DNA of 64,000 nucleotides from IMG/VR virus record IMGVR_UViG_3300037346_000580, positions 1 to 64,000 of that record. The stretch is one strand, 5' to 3'. The notes beneath the pieces are model-generated. The model worked only from the letters and a program-made list of their open reading frames with translations, was not told the origin of the DNA and ran no database searches. This DNA comes from a virus (taxonomy: Duplodnaviria > Heunggongvirae > Uroviricota > Caudoviricetes). Shown piece after piece: positions 1-56,957 of the stretch. Positions within the stretch are counted from its first letter, which is position 1. Each line of letters opens with the position of its first letter. The translations under genes were made by a program, and so were the position numbers.

Positions 1-3000
1 TTCCTGATGATCCACTAGTACCTGATGATCCACTGGTTCCTCTAGTTCCCGAAGTTCCTGATGATCCACTAGTACCTGATGATCCGCTAGTTCCTCTAGT
101 TCCCGAAGTTCCTGATGATCCACTAGTTCCTGAAGTACCTGATGATCCACTAGTTCCTGATGATCCACTAGTTCCTGATGATCCACTGGTTCCTCTAGTT
201 CCCGAAGTTCCTGATGATCCACTAGTACCTGATGATCCACTAGTACCTGATGATCCGCTAGTTCCTCTAGTTCCCGAAGTTCCTGATGATCCACTAGTTC
301 CTGAAGTACCTGATGATCCACTAGTTCCTGATGATCCACTAGTTCCTGATGATCCACTGGTTCCTCTAGTTCCCGAAGTTCCTGATGATCCACTAGTACC
401 TGATGATCCACTGGTTCCTCTAGTTCCCGAAGTTCCTGATGATCCACTAGTTCCTGAAGTTCCTGATGATCCACTAGTTCCTGAAGTACCTGATGATCCA
501 CTAGTTCCTGAAGTTCCTGATGATCCACTAGTTCCTGAAGTTCCTGATGATCCACTGGTACCTGATGATCCACTAGTTCCTGATGATCCACTGGTTCCTC
601 TAGTTCCCGAAGTTCCCGATGATCCACTAGTTCCTGAAGTTCCTGATGATCCACTAGTTCCTGAAGTACCTGATGATCCACTAGTTCCTGAAGTACCTGA
701 TGATCCACTAGTTCCCGAAGTACCTGATGATCCACTAGTTCCTGATGATCCACTAGTTCCTGATGATCCACTAGTTCCCGAAGTTCCTGATGATCCACTA
801 GTTCCCGAAGTACCTGATGATCCACTAGTTCCCGAAGTTCCACTAGTTCCTGATGATCCACTAGTTCCTGAAGTTCCTGATGATCCACTAGTTCCTGAAG
901 TTCCTGATGATCCACTAGTTCCTGATGATCCACTAGTTCCTGATGATCCACTGGTTCCTCTAGTTCCCGAAGTTCCTGATGATCCACTAGTTCCTGAAGT
1001 TCCTGATGATCCACTAGTTCCTGAAGTACCTGATGATCCACTAGTTCCTGAAGTTCCTGATGATCCACTAGTTCCTGAAGTTCCTGATGATCCACTGGTA
1101 CCTGATGATCCACTAGTTCCTGATGATCCACTGGTTCCTCTAGTTCCCGAAGTTCCTGATGATCCACTAGTTCCTGAAGTACCTGATGATCCACTAGTTC
1201 CTGAAGTACCTGATGATCCACTAGTTCCTGAAGTACCTGATGATCCACTAGTTCCCGAAGTACCTGATGATCCACTAGTTCCTGATGATCCACTAGTACC
1301 TGATGATCCACTAGTTCCCGAAGTTCCTGATGATCCACTAGTTCCAGAAGTACCTGATGATCCACTAGTTCCTGAAGTTCCTGATGATCCACTAGTTCCC
1401 GAAGTACCTGATGATCCACTAGTACCTGATGATCCACTGGTTCCTCTAGTTCCTGAAGTTCCTGATGATCCACTAGTTCCTGATGATCCACTAGTTCCTG
1501 ATGATCCACTGGTTCCTCTAGTTCCCGAAGTTCCTGATGATCCACTAGTTCCTGAAGTTCCTGATGATCCACTAGTACCTGATGATCCACTAGTTCCCGA
1601 AGTTCCTGATGATCCACTAGTTCCTGAAGTTCCTGATGATCCACTAGTTCCTGAAGTTCCTGATGATCCACTAGTTCCCGAAGTACCTGATGATCCGCTA
1701 GTTCCCGAAGTCCCTGATGATCCACTAGTTCCTGATGATCCACTAGTACCTGATGATCCGCTAGTTCCTCTAGTTCCCGAAGTTCCTGATGATCCACTAG
1801 TTCCTGAAGTACCTGATGATCCGCTAGTTCCTGATGATCCACTAGTTCCTGATGATCCACTAGTTCCTGATGATCCACTAGTTCCTGAAGTTCCTGATGA
1901 TCCACTAGTTCCTGATGATCCACTAGTACCCGAAGTACCTGATGATCCACTAGTTCCTGATGATCCACTAGTACCCGAAGTACCTGATGATCCACTAGTA
2001 CCTGATGATCCGCTAGTTCCCGAAGTTCCTGATGATCCACTAGTTCCTGAAGTTCCTGATGATCCACTAGTTCCTGAAGTTCCACTAGTACCTGATGATC
2101 CGCTAGTTCCCGAAGTTCCTGATGATCCACTAGTTCCTGAAGTTCCTGATGATCCACTAGTTCCTGATGATCCACTAGTACCTGATGATCCACTAGTTCC
2201 TGAAGTTCCTGATGATCCACTAGTTCCTGAAGTTCCTGATGATCCACTGGTACCTGATGATCCACTAGTTCCTGATGATCCACTGGTTCCTCTAGTTCCT
2301 GAAGTTCCTGATGATCCACTAGTTCCTGAAGTTCCTGATGATCCACTAGTTCCTGAAGTTCCTGATGATCCACTAGTTCCTGAAGTACCTGATGATCCAC
2401 TAGTTCCTGATGATCCGCTAGTTCCCGAAGTACCTGATGATCCACTAGTTCCCGAAGTACCTGATGATCCACTAGTTCCTGAAGTACCTGATGATCCACT
2501 AGTTCCTGATGATCCACTAGTACCTGATGATCCACTAGTTCCTGAAGTTCCTGATGATCCACTGGTTCCTCTAGTTCCCGAAGTTCCTGATGATCCACTA
2601 GTTCCTGAAGTTCCTGATGATCCACTAGTTCCTGATGATCCACTAGTTCCTGATGATCCACTAGTTCCTGATGATCCACTAGTTCCTGATGATCCACTAG
2701 TTCCTGATGATCCACTAGTTCCTGATGATCCACTAGTTCCTGAAGTACCTGATGAACCACTAGTTCCTGAAGTTCCTGATGAACCACTAGTTCCTGAAGT
2801 TCCTGATGAACCACTAGTTCCTGAAGTACCTGATGATCCACTAGTTCCTGATGATCCACTAGTTCCTGAAGTACCTGATGATCCACTAGTTCCTGATGAT
2901 CCACTAGTACCTGATGATCCGCTAGTTCCTCTAGTTCCTGAAGTACCTGATGATCCGCTAGTTCCTGATGATCCACTAGTTCCTGATGATCCGCTAGTTC

Positions 3001-3395
3001 CTGATGATCCACTAGTTCCCGAAGTCCCTGATGATCCACTAGTACCTGATGATCCACTGGTACCTGATGATCCACTGGTACCTGATGATCCACTAGTTCC
3101 TGATGATCCACTAGTTCCTGATGATCCACTAGTTCCTGATGATCCACTAGTACCCGAAGTACCTGATGATCCACTAGTACCTGATGATCCGCTAGTTCCC
3201 GAAGTTCCTGATGATCCACCAGTTCCTGAAGTTCCTGATGATCCACTAGTTCCCGAAGTACCTGATGATCCACTAGTTCCCGAAGTTCCACTAGTTCCCG
3301 AAGTTCCACTAGTACCTGATGATCCACTAGTTCCTGAAGTTCCACTAGTTCCTGATGATCCACTAGTTCCCGATGATCCGCTAGTTCCTGATGTA
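1..3395. repeat. Tandem array of 9/18/27-bp units (cctgatgatccactagtt / cctgaagtt variants), about 3.4 kb. Unit length is always a multiple of 9, so the reading frame is preserved throughout.
   Basis: Direct reading. More than 150 near-identical units. Variants fall mostly at codon third positions. There are no unique spacers, so this is not a CRISPR array. Confidence 0.95.
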
Positions 3396-11492: not shown

Positions 11493-11730
11493 AATTTGTT
11501 AATCTAAGTCATTTTCTTAATTTATTTTATTATTATACATTATTTTTTGTTTTTGTTTCATTTTTTATTGGTTATATTCTTCAGGCCTTATACCGTCAGG
11601 GAAAGATAACTTTGCATTTGTTAAATCAATGGAAGAATAAACGTCGGTAATCTCCTTCCTTGTTCTGCTGCTTATATTTAAGCAAACCTCATAAACCCAT
11701 TCATCGAACGCCATATTTAATTTATTTTAG

Positions 11731-11845
11731 TGGTCAGAACAGGATTCGAACCTGTATCTCCAATGTCTTACCAAAGGCGAGTCTACCCGATGCGTAAAGC
11801 AATTCCTCTACCTGACTTAGCTTCTAACAGATTATCAGTTCTGAC
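11731..11845 (-). tRNA. tRNA-like gene A (T-arm ACAGG-TTCGAAT-CCTGT, acceptor 3' strand TTCTGAC). The matching 5' acceptor GTCAGAA lies 115 nt upstream, too far for a canonical tRNA.
   Basis: Reverse complement contains GGTTCGAATCC and an acceptor-stem match. No clean cloverleaf could be built by eye. Confidence 0.4.
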
Positions 11846-11904
11846 GCTTTACACAGCTTAGCTATTTTTGGGTTGCCCCTTACTCTCCGCTATTTGAGTT
11901 TTGT

Positions 11905-11985
11905 GATCCCCACCGGGCTCGAACCGGATACGCTGAGTTTAGAAGTCAGTTTGACGCCATGTCAATTAAGTTTAGGGACCTTTTT
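11905..11985 (-). tRNA. tRNA-like gene B (about 77 nt; 5' GGTCCCT pairs with 3' GGGGATC using two G-U pairs; T-loop TTCGAGC).
   Basis: Acceptor/T-arm complementarity. D and anticodon arms are not convincingly resolved. Confidence 0.4.
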
Positions 11986-12076
11986 CTTTACTTAGTTATT
12001 ATTAAAAATATAACAATGAATATTATTCCTATTATTCCTATTATTGCTTTTCTCATTTTATTTTATTTTTAATTAC

Positions 12077-12118
12077 AAGACAAATATAAGAAATTATTTT
12101 TAAATAAAAAAATAATTT
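12077..12118 (-). promoter_or_regulatory. Conserved promoter motif instance (CAAATATAAG...TAAATAAAAAAA).
   Basis: Motif family member, followed by hairpin terminator 12120-12153. Confidence 0.45.
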
Positions 12119-47887: not shown

Positions 47888-48427
47888 CTAAGATTCCTCT
47901 GTTTCTAATTCAACATTTTCAACAAGAAAACTTCTCATGAAATTAAAGAGTTCATCTTTACCATGGCTGATACATTGATGCAGGATGGAATCAAGATGCC
48001 CTGAAATTGAAGTTCTCTGGTGTATTTGACTTTTTCTTCTAAGCTTTGATAACTCCTCGCCAAGTTTTAAATATTCGGGGTCGTCAATATCTAAATCCTC
48101 AAGATTCATTTCTCTTCTAATTCTACTTCTTAAAAATAGAATAGTATTTATTCTTTTAGATTCTTCCTGAGTTATTAGTGATTCTGAGAAACATAAAGAA
48201 TCGCTGAAGTAATCGCACTGTCTTAGTGCTTTGTGAAAATTAATAAACCACCAGTTGTCTTCTGGAAATCGTTTATACTCATCAACTATATGTTCCAGAA
48301 AATCAGGATCCCCAAAATGCAGAATAGTAAAGAGATTCCAATATATAAAAAGATTAGGTTCATTGTTGCTTTTTTTCCTTAAAGCTTCCAAGAAATTCTC
48401 CTCTGTAGTTTGTCTTTTATTTTCCAT
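47888..48427 (-). CDS. Hypothetical protein (179 aa).
   Basis: ORF. Confidence 0.45.
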   Translation of the reverse strand: MENKRQTTEENFLEALRKKSNNEPNLFIYWNLFTILHFGDPDFLEHIVDEYKRFPEDNWWFINFHKALRQCDYFSDSLCFSESLITQEESKRINTILFLRSRIRREMNLEDLDIDDPEYLKLGEELSKLRRKSQIHQRTSISGHLDSILHQCISHGKDELFNFMRSFLVENVELETEES

Positions 48428-48638
48428 CCCTCAGATTTTCATATTGTTTGATCATACCACTCATATTAAAAAATATAAAGGTTAATACTATTGCTCCTAT
48501 AGAAATCAAACATTCGAACTCAATAAATCTTGTGTCTGCCTGATAAAATAAAAATCCAGAAACAAACCAGAATATCACTGCAAATATCCCCGAATCTCTT
48601 TTAAATTTCTTAGCTTCTTTTAATTGTTCTGTTGTCAT
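48417..48638 (-). CDS. Small membrane protein (73 aa).
   Basis: ORF. Two TM helices. Confidence 0.4.
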   Translation of the reverse strand: MTTEQLKEAKKFKRDSGIFAVIFWFVSGFLFYQADTRFIEFECLISIGAIVLTFIFFNMSGMIKQYENLRDGK

Positions 48639-48902
48639 ATATTATGTTTAAATTAAAAATCCGAATCATTACACAAATATATGGTAATAATTCGGATTAA
48701 AAAAATAACAATAACAATTATTTTAAAATTGTTTTTTAAATTTTACAGAATAGCTTAGTTCTCCTATCTAAATTGGTTGTTTTATCTTTCGATTTTTCTC
48801 GAGGTGTAGTGCAGCAGCCCACTGCAGTTCTCTCCTTACCTAACTATCACCAATGCGTCTATTCCATAAAATCCTGTTCATTCACCACAAAGAACATATT
48901 TC

Positions 48903-49052
48903 ATTTTGTGGTCAGTGCAGGGCTCGAACCTGCAAGGATTTAAAGATATAATCTCCTACTACTTGTGTCTGTAGTATGTCCACCACGTTTCCCCATTAAA
49001 CACACTTTTAGGTACTATGCAGCATGTAAACCATTCCATCAACTGACCATCC
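48903..49052 (-). tRNA. tRNA-like element C. The 3' half is canonical (GCAGG-TTCGAGC-CCTGC, then ACTGACC-A). The matching 5' acceptor GGTCAGT plus a D-arm-like segment lie 150 nt upstream. Possibly an intron/insert-containing tRNA or a small tmRNA-like RNA.
   Basis: Perfect 7-bp acceptor complementarity across a 150-nt span. The internal segment contains TAG-TAG. Confidence 0.35.
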
Positions 49053-49290
49053 ATGAATCAAAAAATTTCGGCCTCGGCTAAAAATATCATCACACATTAA
49101 AACTTTTTTGAATGGTTCAGGTATCTAAATAGATTTAACTATTCTGTATCTACATATCATTAAAGCAGTAACTTTTTTAAGGTTCAAAATCCGAACTGCA
49201 ACTCATTTGGTCCTTAATCCACTTAAGCAGATTTCTAGGTTCATTCCTAGCACAATGTAGATACTACATATAATTGTCATCGTCGATTTT

Positions 49291-49383
49291 GTGGAGAAGA
49301 GAGGGCTCGAACCTCTGCAAGCCGCTAAGCTGTTCCTAAACCTTCCTCTGGATTCGAACCAGACTTCCATCCATAGCTTCTCC
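49291..49383 (-). tRNA. tRNA-like element D (93 nt). Perfect 7-bp acceptor GGAGAAG/CTTCTCC, T-arm AGAGG-TTCGAGC-CCTCT, and an additional internal hairpin TCTGG-TTCGAAT-CCAGA (anticodon-like loop with CGA). Class-II-like length.
   Basis: Manual reverse complement and stem pairing. Confidence 0.45.
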
Positions 49384-49396
49384 TTTTTTAATTTGT

Positions 49397-49456
49397 AGGG
49401 ATAGAAGGAATCGAACCTCCGCTATAAAGCTCTACCACTAAGCTACATCCCGATAT
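49397..49456 (-). tRNA. tRNA-like element E (about 60 nt). Acceptor, canonical D-arm TA-GCTT-AGTGGTA-GAGC and T-arm GGAGG-TTCGATT-CCTTC are present, but only 8 nt sit where the anticodon arm should be. An anticodon-arm-less mini-tRNA.
   Basis: Manual reverse complement. The D-arm and T-arm are textbook; the anticodon stem-loop is missing. Confidence 0.4.
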
Positions 49457-49457
49457 A

Positions 49458-49706
49458 TTAACAATCACCGTTGCATGGTGATTGACATGTTCCCCATACC
49501 TCATAAGAGCATTTCTGTGAATATCCCGTTGGTGAATCCGGGTCAGACCAAGATCCTCCGTTTCTTACGCTACATAAAGGAATTCCCAATGCATTTGCCT
49601 CTATAGAAAGCTTTCGGTATATTCCGAATCTTTGCTTTTTTCTAGCAATCATTCTTCTAAGACCTTCTGCCTTATATTCAGCCTCCTTTGTTTTATCCTT
49701 TGCCAT
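49458..49706 (-). CDS. Small Cys-rich basic protein (82 aa).
   Basis: ORF. Promoter motif upstream (49725-49760). Confidence 0.4.
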   Translation of the reverse strand: MAKDKTKEAEYKAEGLRRMIARKKQRFGIYRKLSIEANALGIPLCSVRNGGSWSDPDSPTGYSQKCSYEVWGTCQSPCNGDC

Positions 49707-49774
49707 GTTCCTTATTAATTACATTGCAAATATATGAAATCCTTTCGAAATAAAAAAATAAAATCATAAAAAAA

Positions 49775-50227: not shown

Positions 50228-50524
50228 TTATTGCGGTTCTGTTGATCCTATTCCTCCAATTAAATCTCCACCAGTCCAGACTGTGATTATTTGACCTTCT
50301 ATAAATCTTTCACGTGTTCTGTTACGCACCATTATGATCGTATCATCACCTTGTTTATTCCTTGTTTTTAAGCTCGCTGCTCCATCCCAGTTGCTTACCC
50401 TTATTACTCTACCTACATATTTATTTGGCTCCGTATGGAGCGCTATAATAAGCAATATTGATAATATAGGGACTCCGATAAAGACAAGTAATGGTAATAT
50501 AATGTCTTTTAATGCTTCTTTCAT
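50228..50524 (-). CDS. Membrane-anchored hypothetical protein (98 aa).
   Basis: ORF. TM helix. Confidence 0.4.
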   Translation of the reverse strand: MKEALKDIILPLLVFIGVPILSILLIIALHTEPNKYVGRVIRVSNWDGAASLKTRNKQGDDTIIMVRNRTRERFIEGQIITVWTGGDLIGGIGSTEPQ

Positions 50525-50976
50525 TACATGTTTCTTTTGGTGTCTCTGTCTATGTCTTTCTCCTTTATGCTTTGTCTTTTATCATATGTCTTCTTGCCTC
50601 TTGCCAGAGCTATATCCAACTTGATTAATCCTTTCTCGGTAGTAAAGATCCTGAATGGTACTATGGTCATTCCTCTGTCCATTTCATTCTGTAGTTTTCT
50701 AAGCTCGCTCCTATTCAGCAGTAATCTTCTCTCCCTGTTAGGTTCATGAGAATATATGGATGATATCGGGGTTATGTTTAGATTTTTCAGAAAAAGTTCC
50801 TTGCCATTGAAATAACAGTATGAATCTACGAAGGAAACCCTGCCGTCACGAATAGCCTTTACTTCAGATCCCAGTAATTGCATACCAGCAGTTAGAGTTC
50901 TGATGAACTCATAATCAAACTTTGCTTTTCTGTTGTTTATATTAACTTTATTTATCATTATTCCTCTTCTATCCAT
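50524..50976 (-). CDS. smpB: SsrA-binding protein SmpB (trans-translation factor).
   Basis: NRKAKFDYEFI ... AGMQLLGSEVKAIRDG ... DSY ... RRLLLNRSEL ... ARGKKTYDKRQSIKEKD aligns along the full length with bacterial SmpB (NRKARHEY ... GWEVKSLRAG ... DSY ... RKLLL ... KGKKQHDKR). Confidence 0.85.
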   Translation of the reverse strand: MDRRGIMINKVNINNRKAKFDYEFIRTLTAGMQLLGSEVKAIRDGRVSFVDSYCYFNGKELFLKNLNITPISSIYSHEPNRERRLLLNRSELRKLQNEMDRGMTIVPFRIFTTEKGLIKLDIALARGKKTYDKRQSIKEKDIDRDTKRNM

Positions 50977-52066: not shown

Positions 52067-52818
52067 GCTCTTAATCTTTCCATTAGTTTGTCTCTTTCCT
52101 TTATATAATCTCTAGTATCAAAATCTTCATCAAGCATTATTCTAAAATCCTCCCAAATATAATTAACACATCCGAAATCTTCTATTTTTTGGGTTTCCTT
52201 CAACTGCAAAGCAAAATGTAATATTCTCAGAGCGTGAAATATACCTTTCTTTGCACGATCCCTGAATCCATCCCTTGCCTGCATATCAGCAGTGTGCCAC
52301 GAAGCAGAAACTTTGGAGATGATCTTTTTTGTCATCACCTTATTGTCCCACTTTTGTACCTTGAAAGGCCAGGTACTTTTAATAACATCTCCTGGATTCA
52401 ATGACAGGCATTCTAGTGCACTGATATCATAGTTATTTATGGCATCAGTAAATCCACTTCGTGAATAAAGAATCCCCTGGATGTTTCGATTGTCGCTGGA
52501 TATTGCATTCTGTTTAAAAGCACCGCTCTTTAACATTGCTCCTTTGGTAACTATGATGTAATCATGATCTGAATTATGATCAGCAGTTCCATAGATTCGA
52601 CTACCATATCTGTATATGTTTAGCACTGGCTCGTCTATCTTCAGATCTCTGAGAATTTTATGGACTGCAGCTTCCGAATATCCATTCTTAATGTCATCTA
52701 TATAGGCTTGTCTTTCTTCAATATCCTCCTGGGTCAATTTCTCAGGTTCGTCCGAACCTAGAGAGTCAATAGGATTCCATGAATCCAGCATTTTTTGAAA
52801 ATCCGATTTACTATTCAT
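52063..52818 (-). CDS. Pol-beta-superfamily minimal nucleotidyltransferase (motif YGSRIYGTADHNSDHDYIIV), 251 aa.
   Basis: GS-x9-DxD NTase signature. Immediately downstream of the CCA-adding head-domain gene with a 1-nt overlap. Confidence 0.5.
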   Translation of the reverse strand: MNSKSDFQKMLDSWNPIDSLGSDEPEKLTQEDIEERQAYIDDIKNGYSEAAVHKILRDLKIDEPVLNIYRYGSRIYGTADHNSDHDYIIVTKGAMLKSGAFKQNAISSDNRNIQGILYSRSGFTDAINNYDISALECLSLNPGDVIKSTWPFKVQKWDNKVMTKKIISKVSASWHTADMQARDGFRDRAKKGIFHALRILHFALQLKETQKIEDFGCVNYIWEDFRIMLDEDFDTRDYIKERDKLMERLRA

Positions 52819-53555
52819 TATAATTCAAATGTTGGTTTTAGCCAAAGCCCATTTTTAATCAATACCTTTAATAACTTGCCATCCATGTGATCATCACAAT
52901 CTGTAAGCAGTCTCATGGATCTAAGAGTGTCATGCTTCATCATTTTTGATATCTCTTCCCTGATTCTTTCACCACTAACTGTTAGATCTAATTTTTCAAC
53001 AAGCTCGGGTTGCTTCATAGCTTCCCAGATATCGTCACACATAACAAGATCTTTTGTTATAATAAATCTCATGGCCCTTAATAATCTCAAGGGATCATCC
53101 ATAAATGTTATCATTGGATCCCTGGGTGTTCTTAGAACACCAACTCTAAGATCATCCACACCATCAAACAGGTCTATAAGATCTCCTTCCTCGTCTACAG
53201 CCATTGCATTAATAGTAAAGTCTCTTCTGATTAAATCATCCTCAAGAGTTCCAAGTTCTAATCTGGGTCTTCTCGTTCCTTCGATGTACCCAACTTCTTT
53301 TCTTGCCATAACAAAATCTGCTACGAGTTTCTCGTTTGGATCACCTTTAGGAAATCTTGCTCTGATTGTGTACATATCTGGCACTCTAAGAAAGATCTCA
53401 AATCCATTCTCGGTCATCCAAGCATCCATGCCCTGAAATCCCTCCTCCACTGTTTGGCTTAGATCATCTAGCACGAAAGTGAAGTCTATGTCCTTAGAAT
53501 CAATCCCAAGTATAGCATCACGAACGCAACCTCCGACCTTGTATAATTTTGGCAT
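52818..53555 (-). CDS. tRNA nucleotidyltransferase (CCA-adding enzyme / poly(A) polymerase head-domain family), 245 aa.
   Basis: LYKVGGCVRDAILGIDSKDIDF is the GGxVRDxxLG...DxD head motif. RRDFTINAMA matches the downstream RRDFTINA block of class II CCA enzymes. Confidence 0.7.
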   Translation of the reverse strand: MPKLYKVGGCVRDAILGIDSKDIDFTFVLDDLSQTVEEGFQGMDAWMTENGFEIFLRVPDMYTIRARFPKGDPNEKLVADFVMARKEVGYIEGTRRPRLELGTLEDDLIRRDFTINAMAVDEEGDLIDLFDGVDDLRVGVLRTPRDPMITFMDDPLRLLRAMRFIITKDLVMCDDIWEAMKQPELVEKLDLTVSGERIREEISKMMKHDTLRSMRLLTDCDDHMDGKLLKVLIKNGLWLKPTFEL

Positions 53556-56889: not shown

Positions 56890-56957
56890 ATTTTGATTTT
56901 CCTACTCTGTTAACGGTTTTCGGATTTCACCGTATGTTATATTATATGCTGAATTAA

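Follow-up and report, generated by a model that had tools for sequence, protein, structure and literature searches.

What can a tRNA do that has no anticodon arm? This question is raised by a 64,000-nucleotide (nt) stretch of viral DNA, positions 1 to 64,000 of IMG/VR virus record IMGVR_UViG_3300037346_000580 (Caudoviricetes), which is called the window here. On its minus strand, an 820-nt gap without any open reading frame (ORF), flanked by an ORF of 82 aa and another of 73 aa, holds three tRNA-like elements named E, D, and C. An earlier note, made by a model from the letters of the window, had described three adjacent minus-strand elements of 60, 93, and 150 nt having T-arms and acceptor stems. 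It was found that all three elements exist and that their stems had been drawn essentially right. Their sizes are wrong for tRNAs, as had been noticed, but the exact figures had to be corrected to 57 nt for E, 92 nt for D, and about 140 nt for C. The smallest one, E, is a mini-tRNA lacking the anticodon arm. I found that E represents a phage-specific family of mini-tRNAs which, in huge phages, is linked to the gene of a small protein lying immediately upstream.

Structure and conservation of the mini-tRNA

E occupies positions 49396-49452 (minus strand) and is supported by an Rfam tRNA match as well as by a family model. With the Rfam tRNA model RF00005, it scores 40.9 bits, well over the gathering threshold (29), in an alignment that extends over model positions 1-71 and has one nucleotide in place of the 15 anticodon-arm positions. 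With R1, the covariance model of its own family, it scores 67.8 bits (E = 3e-24). From 5′ to 3′, E consists of a 7-position acceptor stem with an unpaired C1.U72, U8 and A9, a D-arm (GCTT-AGTGGTA-GAGC), an 8-nt connector (TTTATAGC), a T-arm (GGAGG-TTCGATT-CCTTC), A73, C74, and an A-rich trailer. The connector replaces the anticodon stem-loop (positions 27-43) and cannot form an arm, which is also true of all 29 protein-linked relatives described below. Since E has no anticodon arm, it cannot read a codon. The earlier description of E as a D-arm and a T-arm with 8 nt in the place of the anticodon arm was thus accurate.

ARAGORN made no call for E, D, or C and found nothing in the ORF-free gap. 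The ordinary 72-90-nt tRNAs at other coordinates, which the earlier note had considered as a sign of mispaired stems, were not called by any tool in the cluster. The z-scores obtained by single-sequence minimum free energy (MFE) folding, from -1.0 to +1.0, gave no useful information. Orthologues of E, 57-59 nt in length, are present in four related phage contigs with compensatory changes; for example, GGGATG/TATCCC in the acceptor stem of the window corresponds to GGTACG/CGTGCC in the related contig L002. Covariation in related phages had been proposed as a check, and it was found that the acceptor stem, the other stems, and the 15:48 tertiary pair covary.

How large is the family? I searched IMG/VR with a DNA pattern in which the 3′ half of the D-arm lies 7-14 nt from the T-loop, leaving no space for an anticodon arm. 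The pattern matched 56 stretches, representing 40 distinct sequences. At least six of the seven acceptor positions are complementary in 34 of the 40, and the stem sequences are very different from one another. The members of the family are 55-61 nt in length. In a 23-sequence alignment, 97% of the stem cells are paired, compared with 67% in shuffled and 44-60% in slid controls; double-sided changes occur in 11 of the 16 pairs, and the covariation score is 0.81 versus 0.20. This alignment was filtered for intact stems, which makes the 97% pairing partly circular, whereas the unfiltered figure of 34 of 40 and the protein-selected set are free from this circularity.

The tertiary core of a tRNA, namely U8, A14, G18G19, and the 15:48 pair, was also found. 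T8, A14, and GG are invariant in the pattern-selected alignment, and among the protein-selected mini-tRNAs, which have varied D-loops, GG is missing only in L089 (D-loop AATGTA). The Levitt pair 15:48 is G:C in 20 of the 29 protein-linked members and A:U in all four members having A15; in the remaining five it is G:G in fixed register, and G:C only if a bulged T-stem is assumed, as judged by eye. The L-shaped core appears to be under selection.

Could the elements nevertheless be decaying tRNA pseudogenes or annotation artefacts? The silence of ARAGORN on E, D, and C and their unremarkable MFE z-scores of -0.8 to +0.4 would fit this explanation, and a few pattern matches inside tRNA arrays have broken acceptor stems (L037, L039, L040, and L050). 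However, the arm is missing in all orthologues, which have compensatory changes wherever a stem position varies and a covarying tertiary pair, and the D- and C-type architectures recur with different sequences. The aligned copies come from unrelated contigs and environments and are not recent paralogous duplicates. Moreover, the strict link to a conserved gene, found in 23 of 23 loci as described below, is foreign to decay. The idea of decaying tRNA genes, one of the earlier suggestions, is contradicted by the armless orthologues, the covarying stems, and this link, and is scarcely credible.

Is the family restricted to phages? As a control, I applied the identical pattern to bacterial and archaeal genomes totalling 596 Gb. 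The 119 matches obtained are about the number expected by chance according to my estimate, and only two real mini-tRNAs are among the 80 control loci listed. One of them lies on a phage-like 1.3-kb contig binned to Flavobacterium, where the partner protein is also present, and the other lies in an Apilactobacillus prophage. The mini-tRNA family is phage-specific. No description of anticodon-armless tRNAs in phages was found in a full-text literature search. The family and its protein partner seem to be undescribed, the closest analogues being the tRNA-like domain (TLD) of transfer-messenger RNA (tmRNA), t-elements, YrlA, irregular 8/4 tRNAs, and GOLLD/ROOL. The family has been left uncatalogued because tRNA gene finders skip such RNAs or give them nonsensical labels.

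The partner protein and the acceptor end

The small ORF upstream of E (49458-49706, minus strand) encodes an 82-aa protein with a basic N-terminal helix (YKAEGLRRMIARKKQRF) and a Cys-rich C-terminus ending in CQSPCNGDC at the stop codon. E starts 5 nt past the TAA codon of this ORF, and a tRNA-like structure thus abuts an mRNA end as in t-elements. By clustering the ORFs around the matches, two gene contexts of mini-tRNAs were recognized, gut siphophage contigs and huge-phage contigs. The partner in the huge-phage contigs is a protein of about 50-110 aa with a basic N-terminus (MAKDKEFEKKYKAEGLRRM..RK.KR) and a Cys-rich C-terminus. There are two types of C-terminus, which end exactly in PCNGDC (type I) or CAMDI (type II) before the stop codon, and the window ORF belongs to type I. 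The partner family has 59 members among 5.8 billion proteins, all of which are unnamed and none of which has a Pfam domain. An AF2 (AlphaFold2) model of the window protein has a helix at residues 2-40 with a pLDDT of about 90 and a C-terminus of low confidence.

Does the protein predict the RNA? Because the sequences in the combined protein alignment (A2) were too diverse for finding loci, it was split into types I and II. I picked 25 metagenome loci by the type-I protein alone, 23 of which have sequence downstream. A mini-tRNA (56-61 nt, 34-67 bits with R1) was found downstream in all of the 23 testable loci. It starts 6-13 nt after the last matched codon, or about 3-10 nt after the stop codon. 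These loci yielded 18 distinct mini-tRNA sequences with varied D-loops, most of which would escape the DNA pattern. Proteins having the type-II Cys domain alone, without the basic helix, have no adjacent mini-tRNA. Thus, it is with the basic helix that the RNA is associated. Among 50,697 GenBank phages, tblastn with the type-I small protein gave no match, and with the type-II query, the only matches were Cys-domain ORFs standing alone in phages of Pseudomonas putida and Cellulophaga, beside which there is no mini-tRNA. The type-II Cys-rich domain (H.CPY.E......C.CC..C...CAMDI at the stop codon) is a widespread stand-alone small phage protein (L096-L166); examples are at 3043-3201 in L167 (Pseudomonas phage Lauda) and at 2456-2596 in L168 (Cellulophaga phage phi18:1). 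The module has a recurring neighbour in four loci (L073 4326-5072, L021, L045, and L092), an ORF whose N-terminus resembles a GIY-YIG motif when read by eye; in L073 it starts 25 nt after the mini-tRNA, and it may be a homing endonuclease.

In the neighbour clustering, no third gene, including any defence or anti-defence gene, was consistently linked to the module. This bears on the possibility that the elements are uncleavable decoys against host defences that target tRNAs (anticodon nucleases, acceptor-end-modifying toxins). Decoys would suit the confinement of the family to phages and its location in tRNA islands beside an RNA ligase and a CCA-adding enzyme, and the tRNA arrays of phages presumably make up for host tRNAs that have been cleaved. 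On the other hand, the known anticodon nucleases recognise the anticodon loop, which is absent here, and a consistently linked defence or anti-defence gene is missing. I regard the decoy role as improbable, although it overlaps with the explanation proposed below rather than excluding it.

What distinguishes the mini-tRNAs at their acceptor end? I compared the 29 protein-linked mini-tRNAs with 181 normal tRNAs from the same loci. The first residue is G in only two of the mini-tRNAs, compared with 116 of the normal tRNAs. The 1:72 pair of the mini-tRNAs is mismatched in 15 cases and weak (U:A, U.G, A:U, or G.U) in 13, while G2:C71 and G4:C69 are each found in 27/29 and A73 in 28/29. The full signature (a non-G N1, G2:C71, G4:C69, and A73) is carried by 25 of the 29 mini-tRNAs versus 8 of the 181 normal tRNAs. 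Six of these eight are tRNA-Met(CAU), and some of them have runs of G:C pairs in the anticodon stem, which look initiator-like in my reading of the sequences. E itself has C1.U72, G2:C71, and A73, and its 1:72 is therefore unpaired like that of an initiator. The acceptor stem of L082 (CGCGGGG/CCCCGCA-A) is the same as that of E. coli tRNAfMet. An unpaired 1:72 is a determinant of formylation and an anti-determinant for EF-Tu and peptidyl-tRNA hydrolase. The unpaired or weak 1:72, G2:C71, G4:C69, and A73 are all shared with the acceptor end of initiator tRNA(fMet), and this initiator-like end is taken as a lead to the function of the mini-tRNAs. Apart from this, the initiator-like tRNA-Met genes in L049 and L074 were found to be oversized (85-92 nt by ARAGORN), with odd D-arms or inserts.

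tRNA frames with inserts and their apparent transcription unit

Next to E lies D (49292-49383, minus strand), a tRNA frame of 92 nt that contains two hairpins with T-loops. Its acceptor stem measures 7 bp (GGAGAAG/CTTCTCC), its T-arm has a 5-bp stem (AGAGG-TTCGAGC-CCTCT), and the second, T-arm-like hairpin is TCTGG-TTCGAAT-CCAGA. In the Rfam search, D gave 19 bits with tRNA-Sec only, below the threshold. Its first T-like hairpin is followed by GGAAGGT. Double-T-loop frames of the D type occur in L171 and L170, where the acceptor stems are different and covary and the succession of a T-like hairpin and GGAAGGT is retained. The two T-arm-like hairpins that had been noticed in D are therefore a recurrent architecture.

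C (48909-49048, minus strand) is a 140-nt tRNA frame with an insert of about 100 nt. Like D, it is below the Rfam tRNA threshold. Its acceptor stem had been given as 7 bp; by homology it is a 6-bp stem (GGTCAG/CTGACC) beside a 6-bp T-stem (TGCAGG/CCTGCA), forming a 12-bp stack which is followed by A73, C74, and an A-rich trailer. The acceptor stem covaries, with GGTCAG/CTGACC in the window, GGCCAG/CTGGCC in L001, GACCAG/CTGGTC in L013, and GGTCAG/CTGATC in L076. The insert in the window is unrelated to the inserts of the C elements in relatives. The 12-bp stack of acceptor and T-stems is maintained throughout, as 7/5 in E and D and 6/6 in C. Relatives have further frames, whose inserts measure 3, 67, and about 230 nt. 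The tRNA frames of these phages thus form a set that is shuffled and whose cargo varies, E being the frame that carries none. The earlier suggestion of intron- or insert-bearing tRNAs describes the topology of C, D, and B (see below) correctly; as restorable tRNAs it fails, with no anticodon loop left to restore.

Another pair of tRNA-like elements had been noticed at 11731-11985 with sizes of 115 and 77 nt. The pair exists, but its members are B of 87 nt and A of 77 nt. A (11904-11980, minus strand) is an irregular tRNA with an 8-bp acceptor stem (GGTCCCTA/TGGGGATC), a 4-bp T-stem (CCGG/CCGG), and an extra 7-nt loop (AACTTAA) before the D-arm. Comparison with L169, L170, and L171 revealed compensatory changes in all four stems; the 8:65 pair is changed from A:U to C:G in L169 and L170. 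ARAGORN misses A. The anticodon loop YUCUAAA is conserved and gives the anticodon CUA (amber). Of the five elements, A alone could decode. Irregular 8/4 "allo-tRNA-like" tRNAs with an extra loop are known from metagenomes, and irregular-tRNA polycistrons include phage-borne examples (PMC5389517, PMC7609411). A shares with them the 8-bp acceptor stem, the 4-bp T-stem, and the extra loop before the D-stem; it differs in having the anticodon CUA and no long variable arm or SerRS identity, with 5 nt between the anticodon stem and the T-stem. Recoding of TAG in the window was considered because of the CUA anticodon of A and is not supported: TAG is still in use as a stop, ending 9 of 71 long minus-strand ORFs, and another stop codon follows 0-21 codons on. 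An apparent recoded ORF of 1184 aa turned out to be a 27-nt tandem repeat. This repeat has about 118 copies (window 1-3343) and, on the minus strand, encodes a Ser/Gly/Thr-rich repeat protein running off the window.

B (11731-11817, minus strand) is a tRNA frame of 87 nt with an aberrant D and anticodon region, which scores 28.9 bits with the Rfam tRNA model, just under the gathering score of 29. The only ARAGORN call in the window, a "tRNA-Asp(atc)" at 11730-11817 with the anticodon at position 27, is not credible. In L171 (4625-4908), the T-arm and acceptor stem of B close an insert of about 230 nt. An 86-nt leader between A and B (11818-11903, minus strand) is 91-95% identical in L169-L171 and is partly conserved in L173. 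The space separating A from a promoter-like motif at 12081-12090 contains a tiny hydrophobic ORF (MRKAIIGIIGIIFIVIFLIITK, then a stop codon) at 11988-12056 (minus strand), of which L171 has a conserved copy, whereas L169 and L170 lack it.

The flanks of the elements are those of tRNA genes. A73 and C74 followed by an A-rich trailer are common to E, D, C, and A, while B has C74, T, and then A's. The same type of end, N73-C and then A/T-rich, is found in 77 of 85 normal tRNA genes of these phages. From this shared trailer, it is argued that the elements and ordinary tRNAs share 3′ maturation and CCA completion. A tRNA nucleotidyltransferase head domain protein of the CCA-adding type is encoded at 52818-53555 (minus strand; Pfam PolyA_pol, E = 4.2e-20), and is relevant because none of the elements encodes the full CCA. 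A second nucleotidyltransferase and an RNA ligase are also encoded near the cluster.

How might E, D, and C be transcribed? A promoter-like motif (CATATATTTG, of the TAnnTTTG type) is located at 49727-49736 (minus strand), 21 nt upstream of the small ORF. Five genes on the minus strand have an exact copy of this motif 5-41 nt ahead of their starts, the distance being 21-41 nt in four cases. When one mismatch at most is allowed, 26 were observed versus 13.6 expected, and none of 100 shuffles reached 26. The motif is found at the equivalent place in the relatives L013, L002, and L076, and another one at 48674-48683 precedes the gene after the cluster, a 73-aa membrane-like ORF (48417-48638) on the far side of the gap. 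TAnnTTTG is the form of the -7 boxes of Bacteroidota. The two-box -33/-7 pattern of Bacteroidota showed no enrichment, but the extended -7 motif was enriched, and the standard scan for sigma-70 promoters and terminators was uninformative in this A/T-rich genome. The -7-like motif hints at a Bacteroidota host, as does the Flavobacterium-binned contig with a mini-tRNA and the protein.

Between D and C, there is a conserved non-coding module of about 240 nt (49053-49291, minus strand). In relatives, a segment with 80-82% identity to it over 238-243 nt belongs to the other tRNA-like cluster (L169 4654-4891, L170 4646-4882, and L171 4160-4395), where it adjoins a D-type element. Modules appear to have been shuffled between the two tRNA-like clusters of related phages. 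Downstream of C, a conserved structured RNA module of about 137 nt (48738-48874, minus strand) forms the 3′ end of the unit. RNAalifold on five genomes gave a long closing helix with three compensatory pairs, the module being otherwise largely invariant; it has no Rfam match. A likely terminator, an A/T-rich hairpin followed by a T-run (48702-48724, minus strand), is conserved in the five-genome alignment. The apparent order of the unit is the promoter-like motif, the small ORF, E, D, the 240-nt module, C, the 3′ module, and the terminator-like hairpin. In the equivalent gap of L013 (4315-5100), L001, L002, and L076, about 600 nt of extra conserved non-coding modules are interleaved with tRNA frames bearing 67-nt or hairpin inserts and may form a larger structured RNA.

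This arrangement raises the possibility that the elements are processing punctuation only, directing RNase P and a 3′ nuclease so as to give the mRNA of the small ORF and the structured RNAs in between defined ends, and that the excised pieces have no function. One unit with tRNA frames between conserved structured modules, which are shuffled between clusters like cassettes, would be expected in this case, and so would the start of E 5 nt past a stop codon. In gut phage contigs, a terminator is closely followed by a mini-tRNA, which is part of the terminase operon leader. The t-elements, tRNA-like processing signals of plant mitochondria, are documented to act in this manner (PMC1920247). Like E, t-elements and mascRNA are tRNA-like and non-decoding, abut an mRNA or non-coding RNA end, and are presumed substrates of RNase P and RNase Z. 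E differs from them in its complete D-arm and tertiary core, its acceptor signature, its tie to one protein, and its phage encoding. For cutting, a minihelix of acceptor stem and T-arm is enough, yet E has retained a canonical D-arm together with U8, A14, and a 15:48 pair that covaries. The acceptor signature avoids G1:C72, the pair preferred by RNase P. In addition, the 23/23 link to one protein family, which holds even beside normal tRNAs, goes beyond what punctuation would need; only 4 nt after the mini-tRNA of L080 there is a normal tRNA, so that the mini-tRNA is not needed merely as a cutting site. I consider it unlikely that punctuation is the whole role of these elements.

As for the phage itself, its SmpB is 89-91% identical to proteins on 430-434-kb IMG/VR contigs. 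Relatives of about 430 kb are IMGVR_UViG_3300034116_002156 and 3300032236_001850. Thus, the window is from a huge phage. The region gave no match to the 50,697 GenBank phages by blastn. Elsewhere in the window, a DUF805b RNA motif was found at 56899-56933 (minus strand; 36.5 bits, the Rfam gathering score being 35.6) beside a 178-aa ORF.

Known systems and the possible role of the mini-tRNA

Is E a partner of SmpB? A phage SmpB of 150 aa with a basic C-terminal tail is encoded at 50524-50976 (minus strand; Pfam SmpB, E = 1.1e-48), 1.1 kb upstream of E, and SmpB also lies directly upstream of the small ORF and the mini-tRNA in L080 and L081. In the window, neither ARAGORN nor Rfam called a tmRNA, and none was detected in L080 or L081, while two other SmpB-carrying phages (L008 and L009) have a normal tmRNA directly after SmpB. 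The topology of E, with an acceptor stem, a T-arm, a D-loop, and no anticodon arm, is that of the TLD of tmRNA with the rest removed. It may be speculated that E is a minimal TLD with the phage SmpB as the substitute of the anticodon arm, working in tag-less rescue or tailing at an empty A site. However, the alanine identity G3:U70 of tmRNA is replaced by G3:C70 in E, U3:A70 in C, and A3:U70 in D. E lacks the mRNA-like domain and the pseudoknots, and has a full D-stem unlike tmRNA TLDs. The weak 1:72 is an EF-Tu anti-determinant, whereas tmRNA has G1:C72. The protein linked to E is of a different family from SmpB, and SmpB is not within 4 kb at most module loci. Moreover, the phage SmpB looks ordinary, and could use a host tmRNA or a phage tmRNA beyond the window. 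A minimal TLD served by SmpB is quite unlikely.

The earlier note had also considered a minimal tmRNA for C because of the nearby SmpB. The proximity was correctly seen and recurs in two other lineages, but the link to C does not hold: C has U3:A70, was not called as tmRNA by ARAGORN or Rfam, and its TAG-TAG insert is replaced in relatives. The weaker link between SmpB and E stays alive.

Other known RNAs were also compared. The tRNA-like module of YrlA, a bacterial Y RNA (PMC4201824), is similar to E in having a tRNA-like core without an anticodon loop and a protein partner. However, its open side is that of the anticodon and its closed side that of the acceptor, which is the reverse of E, and it is linked to Ro60. 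The YrlA model RF02553 gave no match in the window at the gathering threshold, nor in either of the two clusters with E-values up to 10, and Ro60 was not among the part of the window ORFs that was scanned. A circularly permuted tRNA-like element was found in the tRNA array of L080 (728-820), in the order T-arm, 3′ acceptor strand with ACCA, about 15 nt, 5′ acceptor strand, and D-arm; the YrlA model matches it weakly at 728-807 (36 bits, the gathering score being 69). GOLLD and ROOL are structured non-coding RNAs of phage tRNA islands (PMC12286853, PMC5737381). They are likewise co-located with phage tRNAs and sometimes embed tRNAs, while the modules described here are smaller, and the GOLLD and ROOL models matched neither the window region nor L013, even with a permissive E-value. 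GOLLD itself (321 bits) was seen only at 10896-11304 in L010 and 11429-11837 in L011 (296-kb phage contig), about 5 kb downstream of SmpB and of an island of about 950 nt of tRNA-like elements.

I propose that E, D, and C are non-decoding tRNA mimics which would be matured by the tRNA pathway, and that E would work with its partner protein; the chances of this being right seem about even. The three elements would be transcribed as one unit from the promoter-like motif to the terminator-like hairpin. Each of them appears to keep what the tRNA maturation machinery measures, namely the 12-bp stack, the T-loop, and N73-C74 with an A/T-rich trailer. A cut by RNase P at the 5′ end, a cut by a nuclease at the 3′ end, and CCA completion, possibly by the CCA-adding-type enzyme encoded 3.4 kb away, would result in stable, L-shaped RNAs. 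The 82-aa protein would bind the mini-tRNA, probably via its Arg/Lys helix at the open end formed by the D-stem and the connector, where an anticodon arm would stack. The particle of the protein and E would offer the tRNA elbow and the initiator-like acceptor end to some tRNA-binding factor as a decoy or an adaptor, and the weak 1:72 would be expected to keep E away from EF-Tu. Among the earlier suggestions, regulatory tRNA mimics fit best, as the acceptor stem, the T-arm, and in E also the D-arm and tertiary pairs are kept, the anticodon arm is absent, and the design is conserved.

Several observations weigh against this explanation. The small protein has no match in Pfam or PHROG, and a Foldseek search of its AF2 model against the PDB gave nothing below E = 2.6, leaving no recognisable fold; its composition and its gene linkage are the only grounds for the suggested RNA binding. 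The likeness to initiator tRNA is incomplete. The 3:70 pair of the 29 mini-tRNAs is G:C in 12, C:G in 12, U:A in 4, and G:U in 1, and E has G3:C70 instead of the initiator C3:G70. The D-stem of E has the elongator-type C11:G24, not A11:U24, and the mini-tRNAs lack the anticodon arm with its CAU and three G:C pairs. No single aminoacyl-tRNA synthetase identity set fits the family, and the avoidance of G1:C72 is contrary to the preference of RNase P.

A further difficulty is the existence of a second branch of mini-tRNAs without the partner protein, in gut siphophages and the Apilactobacillus prophage. The mini-tRNA of the gut contigs comes after a terminator, and 40-70 nt separate it from the terminase small-subunit gene downstream; the corresponding distance in the Apilactobacillus prophage is about 1.4 kb. 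This branch means that the RNA may be able to work without the protein or may have a more generic role, and it lowers the confidence in a single mechanism. Its members include L044 (6357-6441) with about 20 similar gut-phage contigs, and L267 (1891-1950; NZ_POST01000011.1) from Apilactobacillus timberlakei HV_12, a cultured strain.

A more specific proposal can be drawn from the analogy with SmpB and tmRNA. The small protein and the armless tRNA may form a dedicated phage ribonucleoprotein (RNP) in which the protein replaces the anticodon arm, and the initiator-like end may be shown to formyltransferase, IF2, or the ribosome. This proposal is tentative, with a probability clearly below even. 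If it is true, such RNPs would constitute a novel class of tRNA mimics that manipulate translation, with D, C, and B as versions of the tRNA scaffold that bear cargo.

What do these findings mean for the phages? The family keeps the parts of tRNA used for processing, folding, and recognition of the elbow and acceptor end, and it has lost the part that reads codons, which points to a job outside decoding. The obligate pairing with a small protein makes it a concrete two-component system, and the initiator-like end suggests which host factors to try. The tRNA frames with inserts of 3 to about 230 nt suggest that in phages, structured RNAs are expressed and stabilised on tRNA scaffolds, a trick that has been devised independently by biotechnologists. 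Such tRNA scaffolding may help explain why large ornate RNAs cluster with phage tRNA islands.

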